This document shows, in pieces, positions 1,317 to 64,000 of a stretch of 64,000 nt of DNA. This DNA comes from Eledone cirrhosa (lineage: Eukaryota): positions 228,780,001-228,844,000 of the forward strand of contig OZ024741.1 of the NCBI GenBank assembly GCA_964016885.1. Direction: 5' to 3'. The notes below the pieces were generated by a model. The model was given only the letters and a program-made list of their open reading frames with translations. It was not told the DNA's origin and made no database searches. The first letter of the stretch is position 1. The number at the start of each line of letters is the position of its first letter. Position numbers and translations under genes: made by a program.

Positions 1317-2129
1317 TATGGTTTTGTAAATATAGTTTCCATTTTTTAATATCATTGAATATTATACTCCAGAAAATTTGTCGAGTGCTTCAAATCAGTT
1401 ATAAACATATATATTTGTTGAATTACCAACAAATTAAATATCCCTTTTGCTTATATATATATATATATATATATATATATATATATATATATATATATAT
1501 ATATATATTTACGATGTGCAACTATTGTTTCTGTCGAAAAATACCCACACACAAGGCATTATGCAACCTGACTCATTGACTCTATGGTAGAAAACGCGTA
1601 GCAAATGGACTACACAGAGCACAGAGCCATGTCCTTGCCTATATGTGAGTGCGTGTGTTTACGTGTCTGTCTGTGTGTCCGTGTGCATGTCTCTGTGTCT
1701 GTCTGTGTGTGCGCACGAACGTTTTGTCTTTTTACTGACGCATGGTCATAATCACTACATTTCCTATAGCCGTATTTCTTTGGTTGACCATTGATTAATA
1801 AGGGAGTTTATCATCACTACCATCATTTCTGTTCCTTGCCTTCGTCTGGGCTCGCCTGGAATCTAAAGCGGTAGAACGTTGTGATGCTTCGTGAAAGCAT
1901 TCACCTTCATTTTGAGTACATCTATCAAGTTATTTGATAAGATGTTGAAGAGCAGTAGGCCCTCAAACCCTCAGCTATTGCTGTATCTGTTCCTTATTCT
2001 AGATAGTGAGTGTGGGACTATGGAAACTATTCAGTGGTGTCCTGTTCAGATATTTGTTTAGGCCCCAACGCCAAAGTTTACAGCTAGTCCTGCCAGGATC
2101 TTCATAGGTATATATATATTGTGTCAGGT

Positions 2130-2730
2130 CACCAGTTGGTGCTACTGGTAACATGTATCCCAGTACAACCTGTCTCATGGTCGGGTCGTTGGTGACTAAA
2201 CTGGCAACCCCACCAAGGTTTCTTGGTGAGGAGGGTGACTTTGGACATCCTGCAGGACTAAAAACAAAACCTGTCAAAGGGCAAAGGAGCTCTTAAGAGT
2301 CAATGGCCTTCCAAAATCACCGGGAGAGATGACCCCTTAGCCTTTGTCAAGGCAGAATTCTAGGAGAAGGAAAACTCTGATATAACACCTGGAACCCTGA
2401 TGGTATCCAATGATGTTGCCTTGTTCTTCTTTTTGGTAAATATCATCTTGGTTAAGAGAGTGGGGCTGGCTTTGTGCAATGCCTTTGCTCACTATAAAAG
2501 CTTCACGGCACAGGCATTGCTTTATATCTGGAGATCTCTCTGCACTTGTCATCACATGGTACCATGGGCCCAGCACTATGTGTCAATAATTGTCACAGGT
2601 GTAGTGTTTGTACCAGAGTTTTCAAGTCGCAGGCTGGACTAAAAAGTCACTCGTTCAGCGCATCGGTAGGGGTTCTCCTACATGGATATAAAGTAGTGGC
2701 CGTACTCGAAAACGAGTTGGCAGCCACCAT
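2130..2730 (+). mobile_element. Internally deleted RTE-like non-LTR element (putative 5' region joined to 3' end)
   Basis: 3' part encodes CSVCTRVFKSQAGLKSHS (zinc-finger-like) and ends ...GCAGCCACC(AT)n; 5' part recurs at 58758-59350, 3' part at 27400-27515 and 57733-57884. Confidence 0.6.
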
Positions 2731-3285
2731 ATATATATATATATATATATATATATATATATATATGGGGGGGGGGGTGTATGGGGCGAATTATCAGTAG
2801 AACGTCGGATGCAATGCTTTGCTTTGCAGTATTCGTTCCGGCTCTCTGCGCTTTCTGAGTTCAAATCCCATTCGACTTTGCATTTCATCCTTTCGATGTC
2901 AATAAGAAAAAGGACCAATTCAATTCTGGTGATAATCTTTCCTCTATATCTCTTACTCGATTTTTTTTCTCTCACTCCCGCTTTTTCATTCTCTTGAGGA
3001 ATCCGTATGCTTTCAGAACTTGAGTGAGAATGGACTTCAACAAATTTTAAGTGCCCAGGACATGCCTAATAAACATTTGAAAGCCTTTAATTATGAGTTT
3101 TAAAGGGGATTACAGACGTCAGAAGAAGCAAGCGGAAGCAACCGACAGTGCTGTTTCTGGCTGATTGGTCGATAACCAGGTCACGTATTCACTTCCTTGC
3201 CACTTACTGGAACTCAGTTTGTATATGCGCTGTTTAACCTCATTTGCATACGGAACTTAAGCCGGCTTGGCCTCAGTAAGAGTTA

Positions 3286-3501
3286 GAATTACGATGTTAG
3301 CTCCACCATAGCTGTATACATATGTGTATGTCAAAGCTGTATATCGAATAATATACGTTATGTTTATCACGTCAGTCATCACCTTTTAAGTTCATGGCTA
3401 AGGGCTTTCAAATATTTATTCGAATATATATCGTATATTATTCGATATACAAGCTACACAAACGTATGTATACAGATGTGTTGGAGCGAACATCCTAATT
3501 C
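3286..3501. repeat. Imperfect fold-back element
   Basis: GAATTACGATGTTAGCTCCA...TCGAATAATATACG paired with CGTATATTATTCGA...TGGAGCGAACATCCTAATTC. Confidence 0.75.
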
Positions 3502-3692
3502 ATATATATATATATGTGTGTGTGTGTGTGTGTGTGTGTGAGGATGCATATATGTATATATATATATATATATATATATATATATATATATATATATATA
3601 TATATATATATACATACATATATATATGTGTGTGTGTGTGGGGGGGGGTATATGTATGTATGTACATGAATATGTACATATTTATATATAAG

Positions 3693-60419: not shown

Positions 60420-60677
60420 ATCAGCCTGTAGGTTGAGGAAAAGGAGGAAGAGAGGAAAGGAGTACAAACTCATCGTACTCCTGGAGATGAGGGTTGCACA
60501 TTTTTTTTTGGGGGGGGGGTATGTGTTACCCATATGAAATGTCTCCCCCTATTTGGACAAAATCGACTAACTTTTAAATTACATTTGTGATAATATTTTA
60601 CACGTTTTTATTGTATGTAAACTTCCCCCTTTGTATTTGTCCCCTTCTTTTGTGCCCCTGTGGCTAATAAAGAAACA
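60420..60677 (+). mobile_element. Probable LINE 3' end inserted in (TATC)n
   Basis: Ends CCCCTGTGGCTAATAAAGAAAC, like the 21597 end; flanked by TATC repeats. Confidence 0.45.
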
Positions 60678-61254
60678 TATCTATCTAACTATATCTATCG
60701 ATCTAACTATATCTATCTATCTATCTTTTTATCTATCTATCTTCGGACTGCTATTAGGGTGTGTGCTTTGTTGTTATCACATATAGATAGATAGATAGAT
60801 AGATAGATAGATAGATAGATAGATAGATAGATAGATAGATAGATAGATAGATAGATAGATAGATAAATTGTTGATTTTATTGTCCGAAGATAGTGAAACA
60901 TAGAGTTAGATAATTGGTGCCATACCACAGACCAGGATATGTCTTGTCAACACTCTATGGGAAGAAGATTTGATAGGGAGGAAAATATTAAAACACTTTC
61001 ATGTTCAAATTACTACGTCCCAACCAAATCAATCCCAGTTTGTGAGTGTGTGTATGTGTATGTATATATATATATATATATATATATATATATATATATA
61101 TTCCATTTATTAATATAATGAATATTACTCCACCAAACTGTTGAGTGCTTTATATCAGTTATAAAACTTTTAAGTTTGTTGAATTCCAACAAATTAAATA
61201 TAACCTTTGTATATATATATATATATATATATATATATATATATATATATATTT

Positions 61255-62475
61255 ATTTATTCAGGTTTGAGGCTCACCACTGGATAGAGCTGGTCAATTC
61301 CGTATGGTCAATCTTGATGTAATAATATGGAGAGTACTCAACGTAAAGCAGCTCAACCGTCTTCGTTTGTGTAGTTGGTGGTGCGAGTACGGAGTTAAAT
61401 ATTATAATAAAATAACAGGAGGCTGGACTTGTGTAAATCTTGAAAGGTTTATTATACTATGATCATTTCAATGGCCGGGTTCCGTATGAATACGGTCATC
61501 GATATCATCAGGTATTCGAAATATAATAAATGAATATAACAGATAAAATCCATGGGGCTTAAAATCATAGACCCGAGGACGACCGACCATCTAGCACCTT
61601 CCACTTTAGTCGGTCGCCCTCAAGTGCTGCCCATTCGGCCTACTTAAGGTTATCTGATACGTGGCTGATACGCGGTTAGGATGGCTGGCCGGAGTCTGCA
61701 GTCGCCGCATGCTGTTTGACTGCTAAACAAGGACATAATCTATACTCTACATCCCATTCGGATAACTTATAGAGGATATCTATAATACAATTAAAGTTTC
61801 TTCATAAAAGACTCTTTCTTTAACTAAACCTCGCAACCCAAAACCTTTAAAAAATGTTTAAACTGTTTAATTTTCAATTTTCTAATTTTTTAATTTTATA
61901 ATGTTAATCTTTAATTTTTTTAACTTCATCCTATAAATCTAAACAAAAATTTAACGTCCCAATCTTCTGCTCACACATTATACCATGTAGACCCCCACTA
62001 TATATACCTCTGTTATAATATATACCTCTGTTATGATACGGGTCCTTTAGAATAACTTTTTTCGCAGCAATTCCTGGCCTGACTGTAGCATGACATTAAT
62101 GATGACTTTTTTCCTCTTTCTTTCTGTCTTTTTTCTTGTAGCATAACATTAACGCTGACTTTTCTTCTTCTTCCTTTATGTTTTTCTTCTCTTTGACACT
62201 ATAAGCTTTAGCCCCCTCACCAGATAGCCTTAAGTAGGCCGAATGGGCAGCACTTGAGGGCGACCGGCTAAAGTGGAAGGTGCTAGATGGTCGGTCGTCC
62301 TCGGGTCTATGATTTTCAGCCCCATGGATTTTATCTGTTACATTCATTTATTATATTTCGAATACCTGATGATATCACCGGATTCATACGGAACCCGGTC
62401 ATTGAAATGATCATAGTATAATAAACCTTTCAAGGATTTACACAAGTCCAGCCTCCTGTTATTTTATTATAATTA
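61255..62475. mobile_element. Family E element with ~255 bp inverted arms (61398-61656 and 62221-62475), each carrying a hammerhead
   Basis: Hammerheads at 61454-61515 (-) and 62362-62419 (+): ATAC-CTGATGA...GAAA-TGATCATA-GTAT; tail CGTTGAGTACT on minus at 61333; tail copies at 63451 and 63595. Confidence 0.88.
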
Positions 62476-64000
62476 TATATATATATATATATATTTATAT
62501 TTATATATATATATATATGTATATATATATGTATATATATATATATATATATATATATATATATATATATATATATATATATATATATATATATATATAT
62601 ATATATATATATATATATATATTATATATATATATATATATATATATTATATATATATATATATATATTATATATATATATATATATATATATATATATA
62701 TATATATATATATATAAGTAAGATGTATGGTAGGTCGTATGTGAATCGCGATGATCACGTCTGACCTACCAAATATGTGACGGTAGCTAGTTAAGCTCTC
62801 TGCGTATACGCAGAGCAGAAATATATATATATATATATGTGTGTGTGTGTGTGTGTGTGTATGTATATATATATATATATATATATATATAAATATATAT
62901 ATATAACAACTACACAGCCATTTATAATTTATATTCTCCATATATATATATGTTTTTACATTACTCCGGAGTAAACAGACCAACCTGCGCACTACGTTGA
63001 GTGCTCCATCCTGCATACTGAGGTGTCGGAAAACAACCAACACATAATCAAAATTATATATATATATGTATGTATATATATACATTAGATACAGTTTGAA
63101 ACTGGTTAGATTACTCACCAGAGTACTCGATACTTGGGGTAGAAGAGTATGGTTATATTATAAAGAGTCGGAACCCCGACGGCTGTATTCTTGTCGTTTC
63201 AACAGCTAGTTCCAGTAGTATATATATATATATATATTATATATATATATATATATATATATATATATATATATATATACATATATATATATATATATAT
63301 ATGAAAACAAAACAAAGGTAGAAGGGTTACCGTAGTAGAGATTTTAATCCCAATATTTCGGGCTCACGCCCATCAACGGGGGAAAAGTTCCAAAAGGGGG
63401 GAAAACAGGCCAAGCGGAGAAAGTGTTGATGTCGTTAAGACAGGAATGCCGAGGTTCACCACTGTATAGAGCTGGTCTATTCCGTATGGTCAATCGTAAT
63501 GCAATAATATATATATATATATATATATATATATATATATATATATATATATATACATATATATATATATATATATATATATATATTCAGGTTTGAGGTT
63601 CACCACTGTATAGAGCTGGTCTATTCCGTATGGTCAATCGTAATGCAATAATATATATATATATATATATATATATATATATATATATATATATATTCTA
63701 TATATTGAGTTATAAACTCAAACAGTCTTTTACAATTAAATAGCTCAAAGAAAGAGATATTTCTGAGCCGTGAAATACAAATTAATATATGATAAACACT
63801 AATACAAGTATATAAGTGTTTGTATTGCAAATGACCAAGTTAGCTAGATTGAAAAATACTAATTAAATTAATACAGTTTGCCTGTCTCGATTTAAAATAA
63901 TAAATCAATAAAAAAATTCTTAGAATTTTCACTTATTGTTGCGAAACAGATTTGAGTTTTGAAATTTAAATTTGTCCAGGTATCACGGCTATTGCCAATA

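Follow-up and report, generated by a model that had tools for sequence, protein, structure and literature searches.

Penelope-like elements (PLEs) of the Hydra clade carry a bulged hairpin twice, as hp1 and hp2, between their hammerhead ribozyme and start codon; their genomic copies end close to position −6 from one hairpin or the other, and their inverted copies almost always pair one short with one long end. The observation starts from a 64,000-nucleotide (nt) stretch of the Eledone cirrhosa genome (assembly GCA_964016885.1, contig OZ024741.1, positions 228,780,001 to 228,844,000, forward strand; hereafter the window), whose surroundings are a 3.0-Gb animal genome dense in (TA)n and small repeats. 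We propose, at a probability of roughly 0.55, that these elements rely on an obligate, programmed form of twin priming, in which two identical hairpins would place a dimer of the reverse transcriptase (RT)-endonuclease so that synthesis starts 6 nt upstream of each, on opposite strands. The tail, the inverted pseudo-long terminal repeat (pLTR) and the mobilisation of retrozymes would follow from it. For PLEs, the RT class closest to telomerase, the choice of copying start, the one-sided tail and the inverted ends are long-open questions, to which this analysis offers a defined RNA motif and two rules, one on spacing (about −6) and one that joins a short to a long end; swaps of a few base pairs would suffice to test each of them.

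A twin bulged hairpin in the leader of Hydra-clade elements

The motif consists of an R-C-U-C arm, an upper stem, a 2-nt U(U/C/A) bulge and a G-A-G-Y arm. Along the leader the order is hammerhead, short end, hp1, long end, hp2 and ATG, and copies that read on into the open reading frame (ORF) have the second hairpin before the ATG. A first-pass annotation of the window had described the basal stem as a covarying element downstream of ribozymes of unrelated families, and overlooked the upper stem, the 2-nt bulge, the second hairpin copy and the link to element ends. At all 11 places that it quoted, both arms lie within 1–2 nt of where it had put them. Its TACTT/GAGTA wobble stem at 11243–11259 was mis-registered, the pairing there being the upper stem of a hairpin that has decayed: 5 nt to its 5′ side the sister copies (L140 and L188) show an ACTC arm, where the window has AATC (11239–11242).

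Conservation was assessed in divergent metagenome elements, a set of 77 loci with 33–42% protein identity (the best 80 of 428 having been confirmed); 48 had an N-terminus, redundancy filtering left 41, and in 31 the upstream sequence was 200 nt or longer. At least one hairpin was found in 25/31 and two in 16/31; the corresponding shares were 3.1% and 0% in shuffles (n = 620) and 2.3% and 0% in ORF windows (n = 215). Reverse complements scored 14/31 for one hairpin and 4/31 for two because the motif is self-complementary, and were rejected as an independent control.

Since a MAFFT alignment of the leaders aligned the GAGC arms and not the variable interiors (8–85 nt), covariation was counted on anchored arms. 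With arms picked by sequence only, the register with a 2-nt 3′ bulge paired a fraction of 0.78 of the interior, against 0.43 in swapped arms (p ≤ 0.0005); a register shifted by one pair was also significant, and nine others were not. The bulge reads UU in 34, UC in 12, UA in 7 and otherwise in 2 cases (n = 55), and the pair above it is C-G in 34, U-A in 12 and other in 3 (n = 49). On a quick RT tree of 36 rows, of which 22 were labelled and none was an outgroup, the C-G form of this pair at hp1 appears at five separate points. Three metagenome hp1 rows with a wrong nearest arm (L238, L244 and L257) were kept in the register and bulge counts and dropped from later hairpin counts. Among 41 host hairpins, the outer pair is G-C in 18, A-U in 17, U-A in 1 and other in 5, so that the compensatory switch from A-U to G-C noticed in the window is real; the second pair is C-G in 38, U-A in 2 and U-G in 1. 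The pair counts thus bear out the covariation that had been claimed for the stem.

In 14/16 metagenome loci the hammerhead core lies 48–67 nt upstream of hp1, and in 21 metagenome elements hp1 and hp2 are spaced 57–75 nt apart, with a spacer of 37–51 nt. The 3′ flank ACU, which varies among host hairpins, had been built into the pattern used on the metagenomes. Rfam covariance models gave only three simple-repeat matches to microRNA models in 12 loci, all below threshold, and a scan of the window gave only sub-threshold simple-repeat matches among the 150 of 379 listed.

To compare the motif with chance, we drew 160 samples of 10 kb each from the genome, 2 of them flanking the window and the other 158 at even intervals, with cluster counts taken from 1.66 Mb. 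A hammerhead descriptor found 231 motifs in this sample and 11 in block-shuffled DNA. Removal of one satellite artefact left 24 multi-copy hammerhead clusters, of which 2 were without a long copy and 22 were scored, a cluster being positive when the motif was present in at least half of its long copies. The simple stem of the first-pass annotation was found in 7/22 clusters (1.1 expected from shuffles, 1 in an upstream control) and the refined bulged motif in 10/22 (0.5 expected, 0 in the upstream control); clusters 6, 8, 18 and 21 hold variant copies seen by eye and missed by the strict descriptor. The stem is therefore more frequent than chance would give, and the assertion that most families have it is overstated for the hammerheads of the whole genome, because eight of the 22 clusters (2, 3, 4, 12, 14, 16, 19 and 24) are without it. 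The stem does lie downstream of the cleavage site, at a median of 25–69 nt in the sampled clusters and ~180 nt in the family at 39680, a range of ~25–180 rather than 40–200 nt. Judging from protein motifs, motif-bearing families with a traceable protein all belong to the Hydra clade, and in that sense they are not unrelated. A genome scan with the loose motif alone was dropped as evidence for its poor specificity in this AT-rich genome (373 matches vs 232–240 in shuffles); the signal is therefore one of position, and not of the motif alone.

Element ends and inverted pairs

Within families, lengths past the cleavage site are bimodal, with one cluster of ends just 5′ of hp1 and one further on, and in genomic copies both short and long ends join (TA)n. 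For short ends, defined as those within −20 to +3 of the hairpin, a position of −6 from the hairpin's first base fits 92/125 resolved copies, allowing for microhomology with (TA)n, and falls within the modal interval of 18/20 families. For long ends measured against hp2, −6 fits 37/74 junctions and is the mode of 10 of the 13 families with data (15 tried); F6, whose long-end junctions were contaminated by simple-repeat matches, was scored as a miss. Metagenome contigs contain five real junctions at −10 to −3, four of which cover −6 (L257 after correction of a 1-nt offset), and one further match was rejected as a simple-repeat artefact. In metagenome hairpins, TA occupies −6/−5 in 28/50, against 1–13 at other offsets. 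With the short end ~6 nt before hp1 and the long end ~6 nt before hp2, the PLE tail is the interval between hp1 and hp2.

Copies in inverted orientation combine these two ends. Among head-to-head, mutually nearest copies, 75/76 pairs join a short to a long end and the remaining pair consists of two short ends, where 49% mixed pairs would be expected (p ~4e-22 if pairs are independent; 16 families). A set of 30 long copies of family A has an inverted short partner in 15 cases, a long partner in 1, an unresolved one in 1 and none in 13, and a set of 11 full-length loci of family C comprises 7 short/long pairs, 1 ambiguous case and 3 without an inverted arm. The window itself holds 13 short/long inverted pairs. 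Its hairpins, pairs and related features are as follows.

1262–1298 (+): hammerhead core to GAAA, family A
1366–1386 (+): hp1 of family A, with ACTC and GAGT arms, an upper stem and a TC bulge; the long end meets (TA)n at 1451
7704–8729 (−): family C, C-terminal part of a PLE ORF of the Hydra clade, with CxCX5C linker and GIY-YIG motif
10321–10366 (−): family C hp1 with GCTC/GAGC arms; the long end lies close to 10283
11239–11258 (+): decayed hp1 with left arm AATC
14663–14854: inverted pair of family F23; long arm (−) 14663–14799, short arm (+) 14804–14854
16942–17010 (−): hp1 of family m24; long arm 16845–17070, short partner 18300–18354 (+)
27912–28321: inverted pair of family A3; short arm (−) 27912–28013, long arm (+) with hammerhead at 28125 and hp1 at 28225–28254
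38426–38454 (+): hp1 of family w38426, with a 3-nt bulge register
39680–39705 (+): hp1 of a read-through, probably non-autonomous unit
39760–39775 (+): hp2 of the same unit (GCTC CTTCTG TC GAGC), present in the window owing to the read-through; the unit has a short end at 40200
50885–50918 (−): hp1 of family m30
51839–51970: inverted short/long pair of family C
53136–53171 (−): hp1 of family m14
53655–53855: inverted pair of family F5; short arm (−) 53655–53724, long arm (+) with hammerhead at 53730 and hp1 at 53796–53814
54000–54276: inverted pair of family A2; long arm (−) with hp1 at 54057–54081, short arm (+) 54167–54276
55282–55302 (+): hp1 of family F9
55359–55513: inverted short/long pair of family C
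56405–56917: inverted pair of family m9; short arm (−), long arm (+) with hp1 at 56798–56866
57293–57311 (−): hp1 of family F5
58377–58695: inverted pair of family A; long arm (−) with hp1 at 58442–58462, short arm (+) 58602–58695
61127–61146 (+): hp1 of family A
61253–62473: inverted pair of family F17; long arm (−) with hp1 at 61336–61395, short arm (+) ending at 62473
62963–63002 (+): hp1 of family F8

Two separately primed complementary DNAs (cDNAs) and fold-back copying were compared by scoring which arm owns the unshared middle of the 75 pairs. This middle was shorter than 25 nt in 46 pairs, 11 gave no inverted-repeat alignment and 4 were unresolved; it belonged to the short arm in 8 and to the long arm in 6. 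Either arm may be the longer. In pairs whose tail is on the long arm although the short arm extends further, neither arm can simply be a copy of its partner. In one family C pair (L335) neither inverted arm contains the other. An exception to this argument would be a short arm that wraps around the whole unit, which is possible for small non-autonomous units; it is not possible for a 728-nt case in the 3259-nt family C unit, nor for L335. At another locus (L337) the cDNA extends across hammerhead and hairpins into the unit before, and the template is therefore a tandem transcript or a circle.

Proposed twin priming and rival explanations

Taken together, the position of the ends suggests that each hairpin quite probably binds one RT-endonuclease subunit and so fixes the start of reverse transcription ~6 nt 5′. 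This is in keeping with one of the roles suggested in the first-pass annotation, a shared cis-element that serves, for example, as an RT recognition or priming-positioning stem, which we consider the most likely role in these PLEs. In the proposed mechanism, a protein dimer would occupy hp1 and hp2 of one RNA, either a tandem transcript or a ribozyme-made circle, and nick both strands of (TA)n. Each target 3′ hydroxyl would then prime a cDNA after pairing with UA-rich bases immediately 5′ of its hairpin, and the two cDNAs, joined head to head, would form an inverted repeat with a tail on one side only. Two hairpins acting as two starts on one RNA would thus explain the one-sided tail.

Two primers on one RNA also generate inversions in L1 twin priming, an occasional event in which the second site is random and the segments do not overlap, whereas the Hydra-clade elements use two fixed sites and have overlapping arms that form inverted repeats. 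Recruitment of RT by an RNA stem-loop is likewise a property of the 3′ stem-loops of stringent long and short interspersed elements (LINEs and SINEs). In telomerase, the template boundary element, and in DRT10 the stem-loop SL5, also limit the template of an RT of the TERT/PLE lineage; according to the available text of PMC12632851 these lie 5′ of the template and stop synthesis, whereas the Hydra hairpins lie 3′ and mark its start.

The closest biochemical parallel comes from Poseidon. In the available text of PMC11167929, the Poseidon protein cuts and extends both target strands in vitro and is predicted to dimerise, and its RT initiates at two internal positions of the RNA, both in agreement with genomic ends, and depends on an RNA segment close by. 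The Anolis Poseidon element PAc (Frangieh et al. 2024, PMC11167929) resembles the Hydra elements in having two RT starts 3′ of the hammerhead that bound the tail, and an AT-rich target. It differs in that one AC-rich stem-loop lies inside the ORF, with no conserved motif or spacing rule described in that text, whereas the Hydra elements have two covarying hairpins in a non-coding leader, one per start site. In the text of supplementary figure 1 of the same paper, the PAc RNA segment seems to include a pair of short, similar repeats (AGCC...GACA) close to where synthesis starts; these are possibly a twin signal of different sequence, although the letter order taken from figure text may be unreliable.

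The PLE tail, its one-sidedness and the two RT starts are already known. Arkhipova et al. 2013 (PMC3846280) and Craig et al. 2021 (PMC8557442), as far as their available text goes, describe a tail with an inverted pLTR and an optional extension on one side, as here; they ascribe the tail to endonuclease resolution or antisense self-priming, name no cis-signal and give its length as 30–40 bp, compared with ~57–170 nt here. The first-pass annotation knew of no description of the stem, and the literature searched contained no description of the twin bulged hairpin, of the −6 rule or of obligate pairing of short with long ends, although closed-access papers, Repbase notes and supplements could mention them. 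If our interpretation is true, the two hairpins would give the retrotransposons most closely related to telomerase a start signal that is portable; being compact, this signal for internal initiation might also be of use in tools for RT-based insertion.

Several observations weigh against docking and twin priming at the hairpins. As many as 23/76 inverted pairs come from one family, and the detected pairs include only 77/160 short and 75/201 long ends. The −6 position is itself blurred: 35/160 short ends could not be resolved, and the short-end intervals are ~4 nt wide, so that −5 (90 copies) and −7 (81) fit nearly as well. The host hairpins were hand-picked, with inner U-A and C-G pairs fixed by the search, and show no TA peak at −6/−5 (13/41 vs 7–14). 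The hairpins are weak: folding was exceptional (z < −2.5) in only 2/8 tested, and for some the fold of minimum energy is not the bulged one. A canonical-type PLE family of the same genome (cluster 2) has a 63-nt tail without the bulged motif, and no RCUC/YGAGY is present in the Poseidon stem-loop as read from the figure text of PMC11167929.

Among the alternatives, the hairpins might be read as DNA, the GIY-YIG endonuclease cutting ~6 nt away in single-stranded cDNA or a fold-back, so that one end is primed and the other resolved. We regard this as unlikely. The near-palindromic GAGCACTC and the reverse-complement control, which was not empty (14/31), are in its favour, and the counts of G-U against A-C (11 vs 12; flanked 7 vs 4) do not tell which strand folds. 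However, a fold-back predicts that one arm always lies within the other, whereas in 8/14 pairs the unshared part is on the short arm and the tail on the long one, and neither arm of L335 is contained in the other. Interiors of 8–85 nt moreover exclude a double-stranded site, and the RT starts observed in vitro match genomic ends (available text of PMC11167929).

Slightly less probable still is that the hairpins are RNA docking sites used singly by a monomer, with the second strand primed later from whichever hairpin remains free. Such a monomer would explain the −6 rule equally well, and also the roughly half of all ends without a detected inverted partner. Same-type pairs, however, are nearly excluded (1/76 overall; 1/16 in family A), and the hp1-to-hp2 spacing is narrow in the metagenome elements, which together suggest simultaneous occupancy. 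A promoter or translation-control element of the pLTR or 5′ leader, the first of which had also been considered in the first-pass annotation, is very improbable: the hairpins do lie upstream of the ATG, and D. virilis Penelope has an internal promoter in the corresponding region (available text of PMC2377424), but the duplication, the base-pair covariation around a variable interior, the fixed distance to insertion ends and the retention of the hairpins in non-coding tandem units all argue against it.

Host elements and other features of the window

The protein encoded by the motif-bearing elements was traced through the ORF fragment at 7704–8729 (−), whose relatives end in the hammerhead-bearing family C. 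A natural full-length family C ORF of 709 aa has RWR at 37, DKT at 115, the linker CNCRNRVDC, CDLC and CKH, and no match to a CX2-5CxxC finger; the RW motif is present in 4/4 host PLE N-termini. The family C unit has a single ORF, a hammerhead and (TA)n junctions and, at 3259 nt, is slightly above Hydra-clade size. According to the available text of PMC8557442, Hydra-clade elements are short (<3 kb) with a single ORF of ~710 aa, and are characterised by RW[KR] and DKT towards the N-terminus, a CxCX5C linker in place of a CX2-5CxxC finger, CxxC and CxH flanking the C-terminal GIY-YIG, a hammerhead and (TA)n targets. At the protein level we see no difference from that clade, and the twin hairpin is not mentioned in that text, supplements aside. 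Assignment to Neptune was rejected, as the CxCX5C linker and RT motifs are of Hydra type. Two named homologues are molluscan; no Pfam family was matched by the PLE proteins, and no solved structure was found for the protein by sequence.

The 5′ ends of ORF-bearing copies of family C (L197, L199, L208, L209, L211, L212 and L214) often coincide with hp2 or lie within it, as though the partner protein located there made synthesis stall. The family C hammerhead (59895–59935 (+) and 36562–36602 (−); L328) has the core CAGAAGA, in which A replaces the conserved U4, and a full stem III; both core and stem III are fixed family-wide. In the hammerhead of the 39680 family (39913–40030 (+)), stem III appears to hold an insert of ~60 nt, itself folding back.

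The hairpins also occur in units without a protein. Families F6, F7 and F18 consist of non-coding units in tandem, in which every unit has a type I hammerhead, and resemble non-LTR (long terminal repeat) retrozymes; F6 has a unit spacing of 592 nt, and F7, with units of 528 nt and no ORF longer than 77 aa, keeps both hairpins and the short/long ends. A canonical PLE ORF at first linked to F7 was rejected as a separate insertion beyond a (TA)n run. For the single stretch queried, no RNA run was listed. Such non-coding units are likely mobilised in trans. Non-LTR retrozymes (PMC7229834; bioRxiv 10.64898/2026.07.22.740005) are likewise built of non-coding hammerhead units in tandem and are believed to depend on PLEs for their mobilisation; the available text of these sources identifies no mobilisation signal, and the shared hairpins are a candidate for the signal by which retrozymes borrow the PLE enzyme. 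At several loci (L166:6468–7940, L183:244–2431, L163 and L173) the 528/592-nt units begin with an inverted arm and keep the hammerhead and both hairpins, with stem variants GUUC/GAAC and UCUC/GAGA.

Other hammerhead families of the genome show different arrangements. In cluster 2 (e.g. L152 and L179) the short end lies ~6 nt before a different stem, GUUUC...GAAAC, which may be an analogous signal of another clade. Cluster 3 is a 311-nt tandem hammerhead repeat (L084 and L160) in which the bulged hairpin is absent. Cluster 4, found in the window at 8738–9920, 10741–10920 and 11369–11574, has a GUUC...UUGAAC hairpin 4 nt past the cleavage site and no clear short/long end pattern.

Elsewhere in the window, a GC-rich tandem repeat at 22918–25568 is open in several frames (~700 codons) without a Pfam match, and a fragmented Helitron lies at 30356–34173 (+), with matches to Helitron_like_N (E=1e-22) and Pif1 2B (E=9e-11).

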